From the sequence record NZ_CP025692.1: 55,589 bases of DNA; one strand, 5' to 3'. The notes below the pieces were generated by a model. That model ran no database searches. It was not told the origin of the DNA and worked only from the letters and a program-made list of their open reading frames with translations. The position numbers and the translations under genes were made by a program. The DNA is from a plasmid. This document shows, one piece after another, positions 17,448-25,067 of this stretch. Position 1 is the first letter of the stretch, and each line of letters begins with the position of its first letter.

Positions 17448-17578
17448 AGAAAAGGAAGCCCCGCCGAAAACAGGACTTCCCACACAAGCCGCTTCAAAGG
17501 CGGTGGCATTAGTTAAAAAATGATAGTTGAGTCACCCTGTAACCTAGCCAAAGTTACGCAGGGCGGCTTTTTTATTTG
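17448..17578 (+). ncRNA. candidate antitoxin sRNA of Fst-like type I TA module, copy 1
   Basis: Extended -10 promoter aTGcTATAAT (17432-17441), two conserved hairpins, and an intrinsic terminator CCCTGTAACCTAGCCAAAGTTACGCAGGGCGGCTTTTTT shared with the convergent toxin gene. Confidence 0.45.
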
Positions 17579-17661
17579 TTCCTTTTGTCGATGTATGTTA
17601 GCAACGCTAAAATAAACATTGCAAACAGCAACATCAACGAGAGTGTCTGGAAGACGCTCAT
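17572..17661 (-). CDS. Fst/Ldr-like type I toxin peptide (29 aa: MSVFQTLSLMLLFAMFILALLTYIDKRNK)
   Basis: Single TMS plus charged tail. SD AGGAAGG lies upstream. The reading frame is conserved in copies 2 and 3 with conservative substitutions. Confidence 0.55.
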   Translation of the reverse strand: MSVFQTLSLMLLFAMFILALLTYIDKRNK

Positions 17662-18008
17662 TGACTGTGAAACCTTCCTGAAGATTATTCCATGTTCCCA
17701 TGGGCCTCACCTCGCAAGGGAAAAGACAGCCACCGCCCTTAAAACATTCTAAGCTTTATAGTGAATCGATTATCCGACGGGATAGTTGATTCACTATTTT
17801 AGTTTTGTTCTAAACTTTAAATAGTGGTGAAACTATATGCCGTAAGAAGTTTAGACGCTTGACGTCGTCCTTAAAACAGGCAGTTTTACTTAGTAGTTAG
17901 TATTCTCTTCGAAGAATGTCGACACTTGATGTCCAGTTTAGAAAATTAGAAATAATTACCTTAGTAAATACGTTCCAACCACTAACAGCTATTTAGGAGG
18001 GTTTAAAA

Positions 18009-19235
18009 ATGAGCATTGTCTTTGGCATAGATGTAAGTAGTCGTGATTCCAGTGTTTGTGTACTTCAGAGTGGCGTCACACGAGAATATAAGATCACTAA
18101 CGATACTATCGGCTTTAAAACTCTATTGATAGATCTAAAAGAATACGCCGAACATCCACAAATCATCTTAGAAGCAACTGGAATTTATTCACGCAGAATT
18201 ACTAGATTTTTAGATGAATACGATTATGATTATGTTCTTCTTAATCCTTTAAAGGCTAAGAAAGAAATTAATCAGGGCTTACGTCGCAATAAAACCGATC
18301 GCAATGATGCTTACCATTTGGCACTAGCTCAAGATCGAAATCAGCATCAACCTAATCGAAAAGAGCCTGAGGCTTATCATCAATTGCAATCTTTAAGTCG
18401 GGCTTATGAAGAATTAACTCACGATATTGTTTCTTCCAAGAATCGACTTCATAAATATTTACAGTTAACTTTTCCAGAATTAGAAACCATTTTCAATAAC
18501 TCTAGAGGAGTTAATTACTGGTATTTAGTTGAGCTCTTTCCACACTGCCAAGATGTTAGAAATCTTGACGTATCAACCATCGCTAAGCAAATTAAAGATT
18601 TTAAAGGTTATGGTATTAACCGTGCTCAAAAACTAGCTATTAAACTTAAGCATCTCGCGGATTTAGCTTATCCAGCAGTCGATCAAGACGACCCAGAGCG
18701 TGATGAAGTGGTTTATTACGCCAATAGATTATTACGGCTTACAGCTGATCGCGAGCGGAGATCAGAGGCAATGATTAAATTAGCTAAGACTTTGCCTAAT
18801 CGTGATCTAGAAATCTTAATGAGTATTCCTGGTATCGCTGAAATAACTGCCGTCCGAATTCTAGCCGAATTAGGCGACATTAGAAGATTCAGTAATCCAA
18901 ACAAGATAAATGCTTTTGTTGGTATTGATCCAGGTAGATATCAATCAGGGGAAAAAGATTCTAGTTTAAGGATCTCTAAGCACGGCAATGCTGTTGCGCG
19001 GAAGATTCTTTATCGTGCAATTGGACAAATCGATCTAGCGGCTAAGACTAGTCCATGTCATATAGCAGATTACTATGAACGAAAAAAGCAATTTTCTCAA
19101 ACAAAGGGGTTCAAGAAAATTGCCATTGCTTCAATCCATAAATTGCTTAGAACGGTCTACATTTTGATTATCACTGATCAAATGTATGATTACAACGTAG
19201 CCAACAATAATCAAAAAGACTTTTGTCGTAATTAA
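18009..19235 (+). CDS. IS110-family transposase (DEDD)
   Basis: MSIVFGIDVSS... N-terminus and IPGIAEITAVRILAELGDIRRF C-domain, 408 aa. Confidence 0.9.
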   Translation: MSIVFGIDVSSRDSSVCVLQSGVTREYKITNDTIGFKTLLIDLKEYAEHPQIILEATGIYSRRITRFLDEYDYDYVLLNPLKAKKEINQGLRRNKTDRNDAYHLALAQDRNQHQPNRKEPEAYHQLQSLSRAYEELTHDIVSSKNRLHKYLQLTFPELETIFNNSRGVNYWYLVELFPHCQDVRNLDVSTIAKQIKDFKGYGINRAQKLAIKLKHLADLAYPAVDQDDPERDEVVYYANRLLRLTADRERRSEAMIKLAKTLPNRDLEILMSIPGIAEITAVRILAELGDIRRFSNPNKINAFVGIDPGRYQSGEKDSSLRISKHGNAVARKILYRAIGQIDLAAKTSPCHIADYYERKKQFSQTKGFKKIAIASIHKLLRTVYILIITDQMYDYNVANNNQKDFCRN

Positions 19236-19616
19236 TTGATCATGTTCATTATAGCCTAGGTTAACTTCAAAGAAGTAATTTCTTTGAAGCCTTTTGTGAT
19301 GCTCCAAATTTAGGAATAAAACGCCCCGATTAAAGCAATGATGTCAAATATGTCAGAAATTAAGACTTTAGAGTCCTAATATACTTGACTTTACGTAGAA
19401 AACTTCCTGCTTAATCTATTATACAGAAACTTTGACGAGGAAACCAAATTTCATCTTAATATTGTTATCAACTGTTTCAGTGAAAGTTGCGCTTAATAAG
19501 GTATTTTTGTTTAATACTACGATCAAAGTTTAGCAGCAACTAAAAACAGCTTAAAATCTCTTTGTCGGTAGCAACCAGAGCTTATTTGTATAATTCTTTA
19601 AGCTTTTTTATTTAAT

Positions 19617-20771
19617 TCAACTTTTAACAACTTCAAATATCTCTGCCAACCATTCTTTAGCAATTTTTTCTCTGTCGTTTTCATTTAATTCAACAATTCC
19701 CTGATTTTCTTCACCTGAAATGTCTTTTTGTAGTATAACTGCCATTTCAGCCTGTGTTAATTGGACGTAGGAAGCTAATGTTGATATAGAGTATGTGAAA
19801 TTAATTGCGTTCCCTGAATTTGCTAGAATAACAGTCCTATTGCTTTTAGTTTTTAAAATTTTATACCCACCATTGTGTCCATAGTGGGGTAATTTGTTGA
19901 TCATTTGACTATTTTTAAAAGTATCGTCCGCTGAAGTTACAGAAAAGCTATATAAAGTATGTTTCAAATCCAATTTTTTTAGTTGAAGAGTATCAATAGA
20001 CTTCTCTCCATTAGCTATATACACAATATCAACGTCAATTAGCTCAGTATATATATCATTAGTTATTTGGTACCCATGGGCTAATGCGTTAGCTAATCGT
20101 ATTGCCCTTTTATCAGCAACTATGACTATTGCACCACGTTTTCTTAAATTACCCGCTATACTGGAGCCAACTTTACCATAGCCAATAACTAGTACTTTCT
20201 TGCCTAAAAGCGTCGTTCCATAATCTGCTAAAAAGATTTCGGATTTGACTACAATCTCATGTCCAACCAAAAAATCTTCCTCAATTTTTAAAGAACTTCT
20301 TGCCACTGATAGTATTGGGACTGATATTGAATTATTGGACAGCTTATCTTCATACTTTTGGTAGCCATTTTCCGTATCCTCGATTATTTTAACCAATTGA
20401 CCTTTAAACTGTTTCTGAATGTCACTTAATCTTGGTACAAAATACCCACCAATATCAATAATTGCAAACGTGTCCTGTCCGACAATTTCCTTTATCAAGT
20501 TAGGTGTATCAGCGCCTGCTAATTCTTTCCTAGAAACATCTAATATTGTACAAGTCTTTGATAAATGTTTAAGGACTTTACGATCAATACTTTTGGGCTT
20601 GGGTATAAAGTACACTTCGTAGTGTTCACATAAATAGTCTATAAAATCCAAACTGTTAATCACGGCGTGCTCTACGACAAGGATTTTTTGGGGATCAGAC
20701 TGCCCTTTATTAAAAAGCGCAGCGACTTTTTCGAAATACGATTTATCTAATAGATACTCATTATGTCTCAT
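19617..20771 (-). CDS. divergent S-adenosyl-L-homocysteine hydrolase-fold protein (NAD-binding domain retained)
   Basis: VLVIGYGKVGSSIAGNLRKRGAIVIVADKRAIRLANALAHGYQI aligns to SAHH GYGDVGKG...[22 protein letters not shown]. The substrate-domain His (VVEHAV) is present. DDGGD is replaced by DIGGY and TTTG by TENG. Confidence 0.6.
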   Translation of the reverse strand: MRHNEYLLDKSYFEKVAALFNKGQSDPQKILVVEHAVINSLDFIDYLCEHYEVYFIPKPKSIDRKVLKHLSKTCTILDVSRKELAGADTPNLIKEIVGQDTFAIIDIGGYFVPRLSDIQKQFKGQLVKIIEDTENGYQKYEDKLSNNSISVPILSVARSSLKIEEDFLVGHEIVVKSEIFLADYGTTLLGKKVLVIGYGKVGSSIAGNLRKRGAIVIVADKRAIRLANALAHGYQITNDIYTELIDVDIVYIANGEKSIDTLQLKKLDLKHTLYSFSVTSADDTFKNSQMINKLPHYGHNGGYKILKTKSNRTVILANSGNAINFTYSISTLASYVQLTQAEMAVILQKDISGEENQGIVELNENDREKIAKEWLAEIFEVVKS

Positions 20772-21423
20772 CTTTTACACCTGTTTCCATTTGGAATTCA
20801 GATAAGAAATCACGCATATACTTTGTTCGACGACTGGCTTCTTGCTTTCCCGTTCTGGTATTCATTGAACTTGCTAATTTCAGTAGCTTTTCATAAAAGT
20901 GATTGATGGTTGTACTTTTGTGATGGCGATAATCATCGTGTGTTTTGATTTCCTTCACTGATATTTTGGGATCGTATATTTCCTGTCCAGCGTGCCCGCC
21001 GTAAGCAAATGCACGTGCTATGCCGATTGCACCTAGTGCATCAAGTCTATCAGCGTCCTGAACACATTTACCTTCGTTAGAAAGCTGGTAATGGTGTTCA
21101 ATGTTGTCAGAATATGACATATGTTGGATAATATCTAAAATGTCTTCTCTAGCCGGAGTTGCAATATTCTCATGGCTAAGTATAATTCGTACTTCTCTCA
21201 GTCTATTCTTTTTATCTGCAGTGACTTTTTCGTCTATGGTGTCATGCAAATAGCTAGCTGCTTTCACAACATACACACCAATATCAGTTTCATCTTTTTT
21301 AAAATCTTCTGTATATATTTTCTGAGCTAACTTAGCCACTCTTTGGGCATGAAGAAAATCATGCCCAGTTGGATCAAAGGCCATATTTTCTTTAGAAAAT
21401 GATTTTATATCATCTAAACTCAT
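20761..21423 (-). CDS. HD-domain phosphohydrolase (YpgQ/YedJ-like)
   Basis: H..RVAKLA, YLHDTID and DADRLDALGAIGIAR motifs, 220 aa. Confidence 0.7.
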   Translation of the reverse strand: MSLDDIKSFSKENMAFDPTGHDFLHAQRVAKLAQKIYTEDFKKDETDIGVYVVKAASYLHDTIDEKVTADKKNRLREVRIILSHENIATPAREDILDIIQHMSYSDNIEHHYQLSNEGKCVQDADRLDALGAIGIARAFAYGGHAGQEIYDPKISVKEIKTHDDYRHHKSTTINHFYEKLLKLASSMNTRTGKQEASRRTKYMRDFLSEFQMETGVKDET

Positions 21424-22823
21424 TACTCTTTATCTCCTTTAATTACTTTATTTCGTAAAGCTATCAAGCATAGAGAAATTGTGAATACGGCAACAAAAAA
21501 CAAAATCAAGAAATTGATTGCTAACCCCCATTTTGTCCCTGAAATTACACTCCCTTGTTGTTTCTGCAATAAAGAAACAATAGAGGACGATATTGCAATT
21601 CCAACTGCTCCTGAATAAGCTTGAACCGTCATATAAATCGAATTACCATCATTTACTAACCCAGCAGGTAATTGAGACAAACTATAGGTCATGATGTTAC
21701 TGTAGCTAAAGCTCAATCCCACCATAAAAAGCATATATATTAAAACCAGCCCGCCAATACTTGGTTTAAATAGGTTGGCGCCCAAAAAGGTCAGTCCAAT
21801 GATTATACAGCCACTTATAATGGGTAAGCGGGGTGCAGTTTTATCGTAAATAATACCAGCAACCACCGATAGCACTGCATCAATCACAGCGGCAGGAGCA
21901 ATTAGAAAACCTACCAAACCAGGTGACTGGGCAAAAAGTATTTGTAGCACATTAGGGATTAAGTATGACATACTCAAAGAACTGAATTGCAATAGAAAAA
22001 AAGCACTTAACAACTGCAAAAAGCGTTTGTTTTTAAAGAGACTTAATTCCAACAATTTATGGCTCTTATGCTTCTCATTAAGAAGGAAAAGTAAGCCACT
22101 AAAAAAAGCTGTTCCTAGTAAAAATAAATACAATTTAAAAGAGCTACTGTTAGCAGTCAAGTTAACAATAAACATCAACGTCGTTGTCAAAAAAATGGCC
22201 AAGAAAATGCCCCCACGGACATCAAAGGGAACGTAATGAACCGGTGAACTTTGTTCAATGCTAAGCTCACCAAGCAGCCAGGTAACCATAATAATTGGTA
22301 TTAAAATTATAAATAGAAAATGCCAATTGAATGTGTCCTGAATTATGCCACCATATATGGGACCCACTGCTGGTGCAAAGGCAATAACTAAGCTACCTAG
22401 CCCCATAAAAGTGCCAACTTTTTTCTTTGGCACTTGATCTAGTATGACAGCAAACATCAACGGTAACGCGATTCCATCAGCAATGCCTTGACATAAGCGG
22501 CCTAGCAAAACTAAATTAAAGCTGTTGGAAAAGCTTGCAATCAACGTACCGACTAAAAAGCTTAAGCACGAAACTCTAAATAAAGTTACCACACGAAACC
22601 GTCTTAAAAAGAATGAACCCAATGGAATCAAACTAGTTGAGACTAGCATATATCCAGTAGTCAACCATTGAACTTGACTGATAGGTATAGAAAAATACGT
22701 TGTTAATTGTGGGAAGGTTATGTTTAACGCTGTTTCAACCACTATTCCTAAAAAGCTTAAAAGACCAATCGAAATTATTGCGCTCAATAGTTTGTTGTGT
22801 TTCTCTTGAACCAAGAATTGCAC
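21423..22823 (-). CDS. MFS transporter, 14-TMS DHA2-like efflux type
   Basis: 466 aa, about 14 hydrophobic segments. Its stop overlaps the HD gene start, indicating an operon. Confidence 0.8.
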   Translation of the reverse strand: MQFLVQEKHNKLLSAIISIGLLSFLGIVVETALNITFPQLTTYFSIPISQVQWLTTGYMLVSTSLIPLGSFFLRRFRVVTLFRVSCLSFLVGTLIASFSNSFNLVLLGRLCQGIADGIALPLMFAVILDQVPKKKVGTFMGLGSLVIAFAPAVGPIYGGIIQDTFNWHFLFIILIPIIMVTWLLGELSIEQSSPVHYVPFDVRGGIFLAIFLTTTLMFIVNLTANSSSFKLYLFLLGTAFFSGLLFLLNEKHKSHKLLELSLFKNKRFLQLLSAFFLLQFSSLSMSYLIPNVLQILFAQSPGLVGFLIAPAAVIDAVLSVVAGIIYDKTAPRLPIISGCIIIGLTFLGANLFKPSIGGLVLIYMLFMVGLSFSYSNIMTYSLSQLPAGLVNDGNSIYMTVQAYSGAVGIAISSSIVSLLQKQQGSVISGTKWGLAINFLILFFVAVFTISLCLIALRNKVIKGDKE

Positions 22824-23006
22824 CTTCCAAACACTACATATAGTTTTTATTACATATTATACCACTATATATGGTTATTAGGCCGTTGCTCCTACATATT
22901 TTCAAGAACGAACAATAGTTTCTCTAGCCTTTGAGAAACTACACTTAAAATAGTCGCAAGTCCGTTATAGCCATGCTATAATGTAAACAGAAAAAGGAAG
23001 CCCCGC

Positions 23007-23112
23007 TAGAACAGGGCTTCCCATGTAGAGCCGTTTAAGACGGTGGCAAAGTTTAATAATAGATTAAATAATCCGTTAGCCCTGCCAAAAGCTAAGACGG
23101 ATTATTTTTTTT
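23007..23112 (+). ncRNA. candidate antitoxin sRNA, copy 3 (diverged)
   Basis: The same aTGcTATAAT promoter (22991-23000), hairpins with compensatory changes (CCGT...ACGG vs CCGC...GCGG), and a terminator followed by a T8 run. Confidence 0.4.
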
Positions 23113-23206
23113 GCTGACTTTTGATCAGCTCAACAATTAATGCAATCAAGGCCACGATAAATGTACCGAAAGCTAGCATTAATTGTAAAGCGTCCGAAAC
23201 GGACAC
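23102..23206 (-). CDS. Fst-like toxin peptide, copy 3 (34 aa, GTG start: MSVSDALQLMLAFGTFIVALIALIVELIKSQQKK)
   Basis: RBS AGGAG 8 nt upstream of the GTG. Hydrophobic core plus charged tail. Confidence 0.45.
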   Translation of the reverse strand: MSVSDALQLMLAFGTFIVALIALIVELIKSQQKK

Positions 23207-23484
23207 TTAGGCTACTCCTTTCGTTAGGATTTATGGGCTTTAAAGGTTTAACACCATAAGCACCGCCTCCGATCGGAAATAGCCACCGCCTTAACTTCTC
23301 TACTTGATTCATTATACAGAGATATAATTCTTTTAGAAACATATTTTTAAATCAGTAGTGTACTTCATTCTAACCTGGATTAGTGTATTAACGTAAGTCA
23401 TCTTAGTAAGAACATTGAGCATAAAAATACGGTAATTGATTCATTTTATCAGAGTGCTTGCTTATATCTATAGGAGGTTCTATT

Positions 23485-24564
23485 TTGAATATTCAATCTG
23501 TAAATAGTTTTTTAAGCAAAAAAGCAGAATCCCTAAAGTCTATAAAAGCTAATGTAACAGTTGATGGAAGAGGTTTGCTACCACGATTTTTCTATAGAGG
23601 ACAGTCAAATGACTTCAAAAGTAGTAATAACGTTGCTAGCATCTTTAGACAAAAAGAGCTCTCCGGATATACCCATGAATATTCATTTACTAATGAGTAC
23701 ATGCGTAGGTACGCAAACGATTTTAACAATTTAGAAAACAATTTTTCTCGCCTGTCTTATATGCAACATTTTGGCTTGCCAACTAGGTTATTAGATGTAA
23801 CGACCAATGCTCTTGTCGCTCTTTATTTTGCCTGTCAATCTCATCTTGATTCTGAAGGACATGAAACAGACGGGATAGTTACCATGTTTTTTTCTAACAA
23901 GACACAAAATATTGATGATTTCACATACTATAGTAGTCGCAGTGACACCGTGGAAGTCTTATCAACATTAGCATTGATGGACGAAGAAAAAAAGAAAAGT
24001 ATTTATAGAAAAATATCTTCTTTCAACAAAAATATTGATGATTTGTTGAAAGAAGATGAAAATCATTTATACCCAAGTTGGTACATGGATCTGGTCAAGC
24101 AGTTCCCAGAGGGCTATTATGAACAACTTTCTGAGGAAAACCAAAAAGTATATGACTCACTAAATGATTTCTATAAAGAAATAAATCAGTCTTATGAAAT
24201 GCAATGCCTGTATCATGACATTAAAAGAGATACTGGTTATTTTGCTGATCTAATCAACTTTAGAACTTTACTTCACCCATTTTTCGTCGAACCTTCAATT
24301 AATAATGAACGCTTACGAGCTCAAAGTGGTTTTTTCCTTTTTGAACCTTATGATGGTACATCATGTAGCTTGGAAAATATTCATGATGATATTGATAACA
24401 AAGTATCTCTGTACAATGGACACAATGAGCCAATTAGATTAGTAATTCCTGGTGAAAAAAAGCAACAAATTTTAAACGAATTAAATCAATCATTGGAAAT
24501 AAACCAGGCTACTTTATTTCCAGACAAAGAAAATGTGGCTAGTTATATAAAAAATAATTTTTAA
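23485..24564 (+). CDS. FRG-domain protein
   Basis: FYRGQS, YMQHFGLPTRLLDVT and RLRAQSGFF match the FRG signature. AGGAGG RBS with a TTG start at 23485, which I prefer over 23458. Confidence 0.7.
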   Translation: MNIQSVNSFLSKKAESLKSIKANVTVDGRGLLPRFFYRGQSNDFKSSNNVASIFRQKELSGYTHEYSFTNEYMRRYANDFNNLENNFSRLSYMQHFGLPTRLLDVTTNALVALYFACQSHLDSEGHETDGIVTMFFSNKTQNIDDFTYYSSRSDTVEVLSTLALMDEEKKKSIYRKISSFNKNIDDLLKEDENHLYPSWYMDLVKQFPEGYYEQLSEENQKVYDSLNDFYKEINQSYEMQCLYHDIKRDTGYFADLINFRTLLHPFFVEPSINNERLRAQSGFFLFEPYDGTSCSLENIHDDIDNKVSLYNGHNEPIRLVIPGEKKQQILNELNQSLEINQATLFPDKENVASYIKNNF

Positions 24565-24589: not shown

Positions 24590-25067
24590 GCATATTCAAA
24601 CGAAGCGTAATGGCTGGTGTTACTTATCAACCATCATGGATCTGCACTCAAGACGAATTATCGGCTATTCATTCTCAAAAAAGATGGCTACTGATTTAGT
24701 CTTAAAGACCCTGGAAAGCGCGGTTAAAAATCGAACCATTACTGGGGACCTGATTATCCACATAGACTTAGGATCACAGTACACCAGCGATGATTACAAC
24801 CAACGGTTAACAGAACTACATATCCGCCACTCTTACAGCCGTAAGGGGTGTCCATACGATAATGCACCAATGGAATCTTTTCATGCTTCCCTCAAAAAGG
24901 AATGTGTTTATCCAGTGCCGGTCTTTGAGAATTATGAAACTGCCGCTGCTGTCCTTTTTGAATATGTGCATGCTTTCTACAATAGGAAGAGAATTCATAG
25001 TTCACTGGGCTACCAGACCCCCTTACAAGTTGAAATTGCAACACTTACGAGCCAAATGGCCGCCTGA
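24590..25067 (+). pseudogene. IS3-family OrfB 3' remnant (a different IS3 member)
   Basis: ...KRNGWCYLSTIMDLHSRRIIGYSFS... through the C-terminus. No orfA and no left end. Confidence 0.8.

Follow-up and report, generated by a model that had tools for sequence, protein, structure and literature searches.

A mobile plasmid cassette joins an SAHH-fold NAD enzyme to a YpgQ-type hydrolase and an efflux-type transporter, with a tentative role in making and exporting a modified nucleoside

Introduction

What does a protein labelled S-adenosyl-L-homocysteine hydrolase (SAHH) in RefSeq do on a Lactobacillaceae plasmid, where its gene follows those of an MFS transporter and an HD phosphohydrolase? The locus lies at positions 19617-22823 of the window, by which we mean the whole stretch of plasmid DNA analysed (NZ_CP025692.1; 55,589 nt). 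An earlier interpretation made from the letters alone, termed here the sequence-only reading, recognized three coupled genes, took the last for a divergent SAHH-fold enzyme outside the methyl cycle and the middle one for a YpgQ-type hydrolase, and proposed that together they take phosphate off a nucleotide, oxidise or cleave the nucleoside-like compound so formed and carry it across the membrane. Comparative context supports the general idea of such a pathway, with modification at the ribose, short of demonstrating it, and the sections below set out the evidence from the genes, their relatives and their surroundings.

Cassette layout and mobility

The ORF coordinates bear out the arrangement first proposed (Table 1): all three genes lie on the minus strand, MFS and HD genes sharing base 21423 (TAATG, a 1-nt overlap) and HD and SAHH-like genes overlapping by 11 nt (20761-20771). 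Reading of the sequence also revealed AGGAG 5' of the HD start and AGGTG 5' of the SAHH-like start. The MFS ORF (21423-22823) extends to a GTG at 22823, and the RefSeq start corresponds to the TTG at 22814; a GGAAGG Shine-Dalgarno sequence lies 8 nt upstream of this TTG and overlaps the GTG, and the TTG, rather than the GTG, is most likely the start.

The cassette is a mobile plasmid unit, a property missed in the sequence-only reading. It is 99.9% identical on plasmids of Pediococcus, Lactiplantibacillus and Lentilactobacillus, with a surrounding backbone that is only 87.5% identical, and these carriers across genera are mobilisable plasmids. A variant of 73% identity and a copy in L. iners also exist, and were used to compare the upstream region. 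In the window, a PDC-S15 candidate defence gene (PADLOC) adjoins the cassette.

Table 1. Coordinates of the cassette genes and of features upstream of them in the window.
Feature	Coordinates	Strand	Basis or remark
SAHH-fold NAD enzyme, "EDTENG" family, 384 aa	19617..20771	-	profile scores, AF2/Foldseek, family alignment
YpgQ/YedJ-family HD phosphohydrolase, 220 aa	20761..21423	-	profile and PDB matches; overlaps both neighbours
MFS transporter, nearest DHA2/EmrB-LmrB efflux type	21423..22814	-	profile scores, RefSeq start
Imperfect inverted repeat, 12 nt (ACTACATATAGT / ACTATATATGGT), around -10 box	22833..22875		83% complementary
Putative operon promoter, extended -10 box TGgTATAAT	22856..22864	-	read from sequence
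Palindrome of the sequence-only reading (TAGTTTCTC-n8-GAGAAACTA)	22916..22941		9-nt perfect arms

An SAHH fold with an altered active site

The fold of the third gene product had been named beforehand as a point on which the earlier interpretation turned, and it was recovered: the AF2 model (pLDDT 91.8) is confidently assigned the two-domain SAHH fold, the top 50 Foldseek matches in the PDB being SAHH entries without exception (E-values down to 6e-17, TM 0.70-0.78), one of them the SAHH-like domain of human AHCYL2. Sequence identity to AhcY/SAHH is 16-20%. In profile searches PF00670 matched the NAD domain only (35 bits), PF05221, the SAHH catalytic domain, gave no match, and the NCBIfam AhcY equivalogs scored far below their cut-offs (NF004005, 52.8 bits versus 275; TIGR00936, 44.4 versus 497.6; NF004009, 41.1 versus 485), which agrees with the initial view that this is no methyl-cycle enzyme. 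No sequence alignment to SAHH was obtained for the N-terminal 100 residues.

In SAHH, Lys186, Asp190 and Glu156 bind and oxidise the ribose 3'-OH, and Asp131 and His301 serve to abstract the C4' proton and to add water at C5'. Relative to the human enzyme, the window protein keeps K162 (K186), D166 (D190), D132 (E156), N324 (N346), D220 (E243) and the GxGxxG element (G197xG199xxG202), whereas D131 is replaced by I107 and H301 by S280. Profile alignments further show DDGGD changed to DIGGY, EETTTG to EDTENG (TTT to TEN) and GYGDVG to GYGKVG. The sequence-only reading had identified DIGGY, TENG and GYGKVG correctly; its statement that HFD has no counterpart did not hold, since this position aligns to T279-S280-A281-D282, so that His301 is replaced by Ser.

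These features extend to the family. In an alignment with the window protein as first sequence, the GxGxxG glycines, D220, N324, K162 and D166 are invariant among 27 members, as are H35, K58, D106, Y110, E131-D-T-E-N-G136 and R158; the D131 and H301 equivalents are substituted in every member, position 107 being hydrophobic or Thr throughout. K58, Y110, R158 and E165 are invariants foreign to SAHH; of these, K58 and R158 are basic and might, to judge by position in the sequence, bind phosphate. Just after H35, the presumed counterparts of adenine-binding Thr57 and Glu59 vary across the family; compared with SAHH, the adenine-recognition loop is short by about 7 residues and the whole protein by about 50. 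The enzyme thus keeps its NAD site together with the Lys/Asp pair for oxidation of the 3'-OH, and has lost the residues of SAHH hydrolysis; it is not a real SAH hydrolase.

The HD hydrolase and the transporter

The HD gene product carries the metal motif H...HD...D, read in the sequence as H25, H60-D61 and DADRLD (123-128), and over residues 3-218 matches PDB structures of the YpgQ/YedJ family: 2PJQ (L. plantarum lp_2664; E 4.5e-49), 5DQV (E 4e-25) and 3GW7 (YedJ; E 2.5e-21). Its assignment as YpgQ-type therefore stands on motifs and structure matches alike. PF01966 scored 27.7 bits and PRK10119 96.8 bits, the latter below the YedJ equivalog cut-off of 286; the protein differs from its structural relatives in being a plasmid paralogue whose gene overlaps that of the SAHH-like enzyme. 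Family membership predicts (d)NTP pyrophosphohydrolase activity.

The transporter exceeds the cut-off of MFS_1 (131.8 bits versus 33.4) and falls just short of that of TIGR00711, the DHA2 efflux model (212.2 versus 230.2); LmrB scored 167 bits, and similarity to the uridine transporter UriT is weak (39.8 bits).

Distribution and partners of the EDTENG family

The family with its NUDIX/HD partner is recognised here by (i) invariant H35, K58, DxGGYF, EDTENG, ARSxLKxxED and GNAxNF, and (ii) an adjacent or fused gene of NTP-pyrophosphohydrolase type. The window protein has all of these residues, with the HD gene as partner. The EDTENG family turned up in 544 species genomes among about 185,000 (0.3% of species), distributed patchily and on mobile elements among Lactobacillaceae, staphylococci, Streptomyces, Burkholderiales and archaea; our literature search retrieved no paper on it.

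Inspection of 90 non-redundant loci revealed a NUDIX and/or YpgQ-type HD hydrolase beside or fused to the SAHH-like enzyme in 78 (a family-specific NUDIX in 62, HD in 9, both in 7), a linkage far beyond chance. The partner genes lie on the same strand as the SAHH-like gene, mostly with a 4-nt overlap, and at least 34 of 252 retrieved family proteins are NUDIX fusions, in both domain orders. The NUDIX hydrolase, missed in the sequence-only reading, is the family's main and most widespread partner. YpgQ of B. subtilis is an NTP pyrophosphohydrolase, the reaction class to which NUDIX enzymes also belong, which would explain why HD and NUDIX are interchangeable.

The context survey likewise upheld the proposed linkage to HD and MFS genes. 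Staphylococcus plasmids carry the whole trio (HD, SAHH-like and MFS proteins 44, 49 and 35% identical to those of the window), and their MFS, which follows the SAHH-like gene, is orthologous to the window MFS (35% over 419 aa; E 2e-74). The S. epidermidis plasmid operon that closes with the trio also contains PyrE-like, LOG-like, SbnI/SbnA-like, HpaB-like and MutT-like genes. Exporters recur in the family: an EamA-family membrane protein follows the gene pair in Cupriavidus, Paracidovorax and Acidovorax (Burkholderiales). No adjacent exporter was found in the Streptomyces loci, which form the majority. A Robbsia operon combines NUDIX, SAHH-like and HD genes, its HD being 32% identical to that of the window; other operons include a ribokinase-like PfkB gene (in one) or an IMPase-family phosphatase. 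Outside these core genes neighbourhoods are heterogeneous, mostly housekeeping and unlike biosynthetic clusters. In Agrobacterium, a plasmid-borne copy has an integrase, a DUF4238 gene and an AAA ATPase in its vicinity, and one AbiH gene occurs among the neighbours.

A second architecture had also been missed. In at least five clusters of proteins of about 1150-1260 aa, the SAHH-like domain is N-terminal to AAA_22/NB-ARC/nSTAND and TPR regions, resembling STAND/Avs-type NLR-like proteins; the window protein, unlike these, is a stand-alone enzyme. The fusions contain no NUDIX domain and keep all catalytic invariants, which argues for an endogenous substrate. Our literature search found no described Avs or bNACHT effector of SAHH-like fold.

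The upstream region

The extended -10 box upstream of the MFS gene is, from its sequence, the probable operon promoter. A two-hexamer consensus scan did not pick it up; its TATAAT is kept in the L. iners copy and is degenerate (cttgAT) in the 73%-identity variant. Both arms of the inverted repeat around it are kept in these two relatives, and this repeat is a better operator candidate than the palindrome for which the sequence-only reading had proposed that role. The palindrome exists, with arms of 9 nt (22916-22924 and 22933-22941, 8 nt apart) rather than the 7 reported, but its service as an operator is unsupported. With up to two mismatches allowed, its pattern occurs at least once in 21 of 100 shuffles and is not statistically striking; its minus-strand score is terminator-like, and a T-rich tail is present; and the L. 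iners copy keeps it with a single mismatch, whereas the 73%-identity variant lacks it. The upstream neighbour of the cassette is a RatA/TxpA-type (type I) toxin-antitoxin locus, and about 38 nt separate the palindrome from the beginning of the Rfam RatA match; it is situated between the promoter of the RatA antitoxin RNA and that of the MFS gene. It is more likely to be a hairpin or terminator where the cassette borders on this locus than an operator.

Discussion

We favour, with a probability of roughly 0.4, the reading that this mobile, self-contained three-gene operon converts an endogenous nucleotide to a ribose-modified nucleoside and exports it. The SAHH-fold enzyme, using tightly bound NAD+, would act at the 3'-OH of a probably phosphorylated ribofuranosyl substrate and oxidise it, and the 3'-keto intermediate would then undergo a redox-neutral change other than SAH hydrolysis, conceivably elimination of the 5'-(poly)phosphate to a 4',5'-ene, 2'- or 4'-epimerisation, or elimination of the base. 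The YpgQ-type HD protein, whose place in most other lineages would be taken by a NUDIX hydrolase, may remove phosphates, both maturing the product and preventing its nucleotide form from building up, and the MFS pump would provide export and self-protection. We infer which substrate is used, by what exact chemistry and in what order of steps, as well as the endogenous origin of the product; the fold, the retained NAD site and Lys/Asp pair, the lost hydrolysis residues, the recurrent linkage to pyrophosphohydrolases and exporters, and the mobility of the cassette, are matters of observation. The Streptomyces loci with no exporter alongside, and the varied neighbourhoods unlike biosynthetic clusters, speak against this reading.

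Two described systems offer points of comparison. AgmF of angustmycin biosynthesis is an SAHH-like NAD+-dependent dehydratase that, like the scheme above, dispenses with SAH hydrolysis and runs a self-sufficient NAD+ redox cycle on a nucleoside sugar via a keto intermediate; its H56, D129, K184, D188 and H299 are all essential (PMC8599513). AgmF keeps the canonical catalytic set, whereas EDTENG enzymes have the K and D equivalents, with D129 and H299 replaced by I107 and S280, and were not found in an agm-type cluster; by these residues the family does not belong to the AgmF type. The 6-thioguanine operon tgsA-F of coagulase-negative staphylococci encodes modifying enzymes, two NUDIX hydrolases, a phosphatase and an efflux protein, and similarly modifies a nucleotide, strips phosphates, and exports the antimetabolite with protection of the producer (PMC7994395). 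Its cysteine desulfurase, TtuA-like sulfur transferase and EmrE-like pump are all unrelated to the cassette proteins, and the resemblance is one of analogy, not homology.

Detoxification of an imported analogue would account equally well for the architecture of the cassette, and resistance to an exogenous nucleoside antimetabolite, the option that the sequence-only reading placed first, is the main rival, possible though on balance unlikely. In that case hydrolysis of the activated analogue triphosphate would fall to the HD or NUDIX enzyme, irreversible inactivation of the nucleoside or nucleotide to the SAHH-like enzyme, and efflux to the MFS. The transporter does come nearest to drug-efflux families (DHA2/EmrB, LmrB); YpgQ-type and MutT-like hydrolases are house-cleaning enzymes; near-identical spread across genera on mobilisable plasmids resembles that of resistance genes; the end of a biosynthesis-like operon, where the Staphylococcus trio sits, is a frequent site of self-resistance modules; and the family is frequent among soil Streptomyces and Burkholderiales, whose habitat is shared with nucleoside-antibiotic producers. 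What weighs against resistance is that the NUDIX-free STAND fusions suggest an abundant endogenous substrate, that tight fusion to a single NUDIX clade across many phyla points to one particular metabolite and not to assorted xenobiotics, and that kimchi, olive and silage niches have no known candidate toxin. A module of biological conflict (anti-phage or abortive infection) seems improbable. Here the SAHH-like enzyme would serve as an effector, toxic or antiviral, by draining a nucleotide pool or making an inhibitory nucleotide, with NUDIX or HD as co-effector or safeguard. Such a role would suit the STAND fusions, in which the domain, its active-site invariants intact, holds the N-terminal position usual for effectors of STAND-type proteins, as well as the patchy distribution on mobile elements, the adjoining PDC-S15 gene and the Agrobacterium and AbiH neighbourhoods. 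Yet PADLOC-DB 2.0 gave no significant defence-model match to the SAHH-like, HD or MFS proteins (weak Rossmann-type E1-E2 matches, 18.9 bits at best, and one spurious JetD; none for the MFS) and only a weak PDC-S07 match to the NUDIX partner; wider neighbourhoods are mostly housekeeping rather than defence islands; dedicated exporters and the Staphylococcus operon misfit a purely intracellular immune effector; and a sensor component is missing from the Lactobacillaceae trio.

A role in salvage or catabolism is very unlikely; the MFS would then import a 5'-substituted or other modified nucleoside from the environment, SAHH-style chemistry would release a usable nucleoside, and HD or NUDIX would adjust the phosphorylation state. 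SAHH-type chemistry does remove 5' substituents, and the PfkB gene and the faint UriT similarity point the same way, but DHA2-like MFS and EamA families are typically exporters, the residues for water addition at C5' are lost, a pyrophosphohydrolase is an odd obligatory partner, and the STAND fusions are left unexplained. Next to no credence attaches to a genuine, divergent methyl-cycle SAH hydrolase: the RefSeq name, the fold and the NAD domain favour it, against which stand the equivalog scores (41-53 bits versus cut-offs of 275-497.6), the unmatched PF05221, the family-wide replacement of D131 and H301, the variable Thr57/Glu59 positions, and a plasmid-borne gene linked to NUDIX and HD partners rather than to methionine-cycle genes.

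A broader and distinctly speculative possibility, to which we give little weight, is that EDTENG enzymes form a new class of nucleotide-targeting effectors with two deployments, as effector domains of NLR-like STAND immune proteins and as cassette enzymes. Their bound NAD+ would serve to convert a canonical nucleotide, ATP or AMP for instance, via the 3'-keto form, to a toxic or antiviral sugar-modified product (perhaps a 4',5'-didehydro, arabino or xylo derivative), or destroy the nucleotide; the cassette, with its sanitising NUDIX/HD hydrolase and exporter, would then be a minimal factory for a secreted antimetabolite on food-fermentation plasmids.

The names "S-adenosyl-L-homocysteine hydrolase" on many plasmids and "adenosylhomocysteinase" in many genomes are very probably wrong. 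The nearly constant coupling of the family to a nucleotide pyrophosphatase points to an unrecognised nucleotide or nucleoside reaction, probably one that forms a modified nucleoside or gets rid of it. Because the cassette consists of three small genes, the question is directly testable. If the STAND fusions are immune proteins, they would represent a new effector chemistry; if the cassette is a resistance module, it would be a mobile determinant against nucleoside drugs; and if a secreted antimetabolite is made, an unnoticed pathway to a bioactive compound would reside on plasmids of lactobacilli that are in wide food and probiotic use.

Gene organization and predicted products

The three overlapping minus-strand genes of the cassette are present as the sequence-only reading had described them, the MFS and HD genes sharing one base (TAATG) and the HD and SAHH-like genes 11 nt, and inspection of the sequence revealed Shine-Dalgarno-like sequences (AGGAG and AGGTG) at both internal starts. 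The MFS gene more probably begins at TTG 22814 than at GTG 22823, since RefSeq annotates the former on an almost identical plasmid and GGAAGG lies 8 nt upstream of 22814 but overlaps the GTG. All three genes are already annotated, the SAHH-like one incorrectly.

By profile scores the MFS protein (MFS_1, 131.8 bits; LmrB, 167 bits) comes closest to DHA2/EmrB-type efflux pumps, its TIGR00711 score of 212 bits lying below the cut-off of 230. The HD protein, from its PDB matches (2PJQ, E 4.5e-49; 5DQV, E 4e-25; 3GW7, E 2.5e-21) and its metal motif (H25, H60-D61, D123/D125), is a clear member of the YpgQ/YedJ family, to which B. subtilis YpgQ, a metal-dependent (d)NTP pyrophosphohydrolase, belongs.

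Features of the cassette and its surroundings in the window
Feature	Coordinates	Strand	Remarks
Insertion relative to pCM-BB2-1	17750-19398		~1.65 kb
408-aa ORF within insertion	18009-19235	+	which we take to be an IS110-type transposase
Block shared with pCM-BB2-1	19399-24508		99.88% identical
SAHH-like gene	19617-20771	-	ORF in window
HD gene	20761-21423	-	ORF in window
MFS gene	21423-22823	-	ORF in window
12-nt inverted repeat	22833-22844 / 22864-22875		brackets extended -10 box
Palindrome, 9-nt arms	22916-22924 / 22933-22941
Type I toxin-antitoxin locus	22979-23325		directly upstream of operon
RatA (Rfam)	22979-23068	+	88 bits
Convergent terminator hairpin	22995-23022		within toxin-antitoxin locus
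34-aa hydrophobic toxin ORF, MSVSDALQLMLAFGTFIVALIALIVELIKSQQKK	23102-23206	-	annotated 'putative holin-like toxin' on related plasmids
rli28 (Rfam)	23140-23325	-	66.7 bits
Gene for 368-aa protein	23458-24564	+	divergent neighbour
143-aa ORF	24636-25067	+	presumably IS3-family transposase C-terminal (integrase-core) part

Fold and active site of the SAHH-like protein

We class the product of the SAHH-like gene as a predicted NAD-dependent enzyme of SAHH fold that would act on nucleoside sugars through a remodelled active site, within a conserved mini-pathway. Its sole domain match is PF00670, the SAHH NAD domain (35 bits). An AlphaFold2 model built from a 27-sequence family alignment (pLDDT 91.8, pTM 0.87) was compared with the PDB by Foldseek, and all of the top 50 matches were SAHH entries, one of them the SAHH-like domain of human AHCYL2, with E-values down to 6e-17, TM-scores of 0.70-0.78 and 16-20% identity; model and search thus agree on the fold first proposed from sequence.

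The active site was mapped by profile alignments to P. aeruginosa SAHH and human SAHH, the human reference sequence being consistent with the motifs in the P. aeruginosa alignment. The N-terminal 100 residues could not be aligned to SAHH by sequence (hmmalign, hhalign), so that the correspondences of H35 with His55 and of K56/K58 with the Cys79 loop follow secondary-structure order only.

Active-site residues of the SAHH-like protein and their human SAHH counterparts
SAHH-like protein	Human SAHH	Status
D106	D130	kept
I107	D131	lost
Y110	D134	changed
E131-D132-T133-E134-N135-G136	E155-E156-T157-T158-T159-G160	partly changed
R158	D182	changed
K162	K186	kept
D166	D190	kept
G197xG199xxG202	G220xG222xxG225	kept
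D220	E243	conservative
T279-S280-A281-D282	G300-H301-F302-D303	H301 lost
N324	N346	kept

In SAHH, binding and oxidation of the ribose 3'-OH depend on K186, D190 and E156, and the steps at C4'/C5' on D131, H301 and H55. The retention of K162, D166 and D132 against the replacement of D131 and H301 indicates that the apparatus for NAD-dependent 3'-oxidation has been kept and that for elimination and hydration replaced. The protein is very probably an NAD enzyme oxidising a ribose 3'-OH, and on this residue pattern it is predicted to be incapable of the second half-reaction of SAHH. In the EDTENG family, comprising this protein and its relatives and named after the motif, the invariant residues (numbered as in the window protein) are H35, K58, D106, G108, Y110, F111, EDTENG, Y140, R158, S159, K162, E165, D166, T279, S280, D283, N324 and F325. 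Compared with the adenine-recognition loop of SAHH, the window protein has some 7 residues fewer in the loop that follows N324. By their position in the sequence, the new basic invariants K58 and R158, together with K56, present in most members, suggest an anionic group on the substrate, for example phosphate.

To our knowledge, AgmF is the one characterised SAHH-like enzyme that performs different chemistry. It is reported to keep H56, D129, K184, D188 and H299 (PMC8599513), whereas the EDTENG family is not AgmF-like in its catalytic set, D129 and H299 being the residues that differ; membership in the AgmF-type dehydratases is ruled out by these catalytic residues.

Distribution and partners of the EDTENG family

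A database search returned 718 relatives, the representative library yielded 136 clusters with a threshold of E<=1e-30 and 595 with one of E<=1e-10, and a scan of one genome per species identified an EDTENG-motif relative in 544 genomes. Streptomyces forms the majority of the 80 loci retained, others including Burkholderiales, Alphaproteobacteria, Bdellovibrionales, Ktedonobacterales, Nanoarchaeota, Methanovirga and, in a chromosomal setting, Lactobacillus iners. A distant stand-alone member (28% identity; L100, 8001-9143) occurs on the conjugative plasmid pAtl-11c of Agrobacterium fabrum among genes for an integrase, a DUF4238 protein, an AAA ATPase and hypothetical proteins, a setting that resembles a defence island. 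A phage origin was rejected, the family being essentially missing from phages: by tblastn none of 50,697 phage records matched, and of 2.9 million viral contigs only 4 did, including one with a sequence identical to the plasmid cassette.

Because greedy gene calling was unreliable in high-GC loci, partners were counted from HMM hits on all ORFs. Among 90 non-redundant loci, 62 carry a family-specific NUDIX gene only, nine a YpgQ-type HD gene only and seven both, in each class on the same strand and usually with a 4-nt overlap; the 12 with neither include two STAND fusions and two loci cut off by the end of a contig. Of 252 retrieved proteins, at least 34 are fusions of NUDIX and SAHH-like domains, in one order or the other, and none is an HD fusion. 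Partnership with predicted NTP/NDP-X pyrophosphohydrolase-type enzymes is all but obligatory. Predicted exporters recur beside EDTENG genes: a membrane protein of the EamA family, 296-314 aa long, comes after the pair in Cupriavidus, Paracidovorax and Acidovorax. Further operons carry a PfkB kinase resembling ribokinase or a phosphatase of the IMPase family. Outside the core genes the neighbourhoods are heterogeneous and largely housekeeping. A full-text literature search found no paper on the EDTENG family, the NUDIX/HD partnership or the STAND fusions.

The linkage to HD and MFS genes postulated for the window persists on Staphylococcus plasmids, where the whole trio is kept in the order HD, SAHH-like, MFS (44%, 49% and 35% identity to the window proteins). 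On S. epidermidis plasmids it forms the end of a longer operon, which in pHD40-5_1 (L099, 1329-11500; likewise loci L002-L005) has eleven genes, encoding DUF523, a LOG-type phosphoribohydrolase (TIGR00730), an SbnI-like O-phosphoserine synthase, an HpaB-like monooxygenase, a MutT-like NUDIX hydrolase, an M24-family protein, an SbnA-like PLP enzyme, a PyrE-like phosphoribosyltransferase, and the HD, SAHH-like and MFS proteins. Homologues of this operon occur in S. cohnii and S. ureilyticus.

Promoter region and flanking elements

The palindrome taken in the sequence-only reading for an operator is real and has longer arms than then given, but its role as operator is not supported. It lies between the RatA start and the MFS promoter, scores as terminator-like on the minus strand right after a stronger terminator (23022-22995), and is absent from a 73%-identity variant of the cassette with a different upstream neighbour; a read-through terminator or part of the toxin-antitoxin module is therefore the more economical reading. 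The 12-nt inverted repeat, kept in all three cassette versions, is a better operator candidate. No regulator gene lies near the operon, as previously noted.

On related plasmids a second 'holin-like toxin' gene stands on the other side of the cassette (~window 17570-17660). Among the PADLOC models, the 368-aa protein hits PDC-S15, a candidate defence family (239.9 bits); its gene shares the 99.9%-identical block with the cassette and stands just before the 143-aa ORF. In the corresponding position of a related plasmid, upstream of the 'holin-like toxin' gene, the annotation gives an FRG-domain protein.

Spread and decay of the cassette

Plasmids of Pediococcus inopinatus, Lactiplantibacillus plantarum, L. 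pentosus, L. paraplantarum and Lentilactobacillus buchneri carry the 3.7-kb cassette region at 99.8-99.9% identity; it matches 292 plasmid records, 40 of which cover at least 80% of it. The near-identity of the block shared with pCM-BB2-1, against only 87.5% in the adjoining backbone, indicates that the cassette is mobile, moving as a recently exchanged block on mobilisable plasmids. The insertion lies exactly at the border of backbone and block.

L. plantarum plasmids also carry diverged cassettes (73%, 72% and 63% protein identity) and decayed ones. Broken copies (H4, on the L. buchneri CD034 plasmid; L097, on the L. plantarum L75a plasmid; and plasmid matches H50 and H56-H59) include one in which IS30 has inserted between MFS and HD, one whose SAHH-like gene is split and which has no MFS listed, and remnants with the first 43 codons only; selection for the cassette is therefore not universal. 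The chromosomal copy of L. iners DSM 13335 (L014, 5349-9883, on a 179-kb scaffold) is permuted (HD, SAHH-like, ~650 bp, MFS, HD), its SAHH-like gene being 95% identical and its HD copies far more diverged than SAHH-like and MFS; the layout resembles what a tandem or circular cassette junction would give.

A proposed pathway and its alternatives

We favor, at a probability of roughly 0.4, a pathway producing and exporting a sugar-modified nucleoside. A cellular nucleotide would be modified on its sugar via a 3'-keto intermediate, the chemistry and direction being conjecture; from the positions that a 3'-ketone activates, the outcome could be elimination of the 5'-(poly)phosphate, leaving a 4',5'-ene, epimerisation of C2' or C4', or release of the base. 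Hydrolysis by HD or NUDIX would then remove the phosphates, and the pump would export the nucleoside. A documented precedent for such an arrangement is the staphylococcal 6-thioguanine operon, where modifying enzymes are joined by two NUDIX hydrolases and a phosphatase, and the efflux protein doubles as protection for the producer (PMC7994395). Resistance to an imported nucleoside analogue, raised earlier as an alternative, would account for the type of pump and the plasmid spread no less well, but the STAND fusions are harder to explain by it, and we hold it doubtful, if plausible.

These fusions (at least five clusters, 1148-1263 aa: P0204, P0215, P0232, P0239, P0251; loci L091, L092) begin with the SAHH-like domain, its catalytic invariants all preserved, and continue with AAA_22/NB-ARC/nSTAND and TPR repeats. 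The N-terminal position is the usual place of the effector in NLR-like proteins, and a SAHH-like domain there argues for an abundant endogenous substrate and a potentially harmful action. A role in conflict or defence is nevertheless unlikely: the EDTENG family is essentially absent from PADLOC defence models, with no match to a known defence system, and 126 neighbours at 26 diverse loci revealed no enrichment of defence islands or biosynthetic clusters, only XRE-type HTH regulators recurring (5). The STAND and conflict-system papers examined mention neither a SAHH-type effector nor an N-terminal SAHH-fold architecture. Import and salvage is improbable, less likely than production and export, resistance or conflict. 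That the protein is a genuine SAHH is for practical purposes excluded; on AhcY equivalog models it reaches 41-53 bits against cut-offs of 275-497.6.

The S. epidermidis operon looks like a nucleoside or nucleobase natural-product pathway in which the trio would supply the last steps or self-protection, and its eleven genes look like an undescribed cluster of skin staphylococci.
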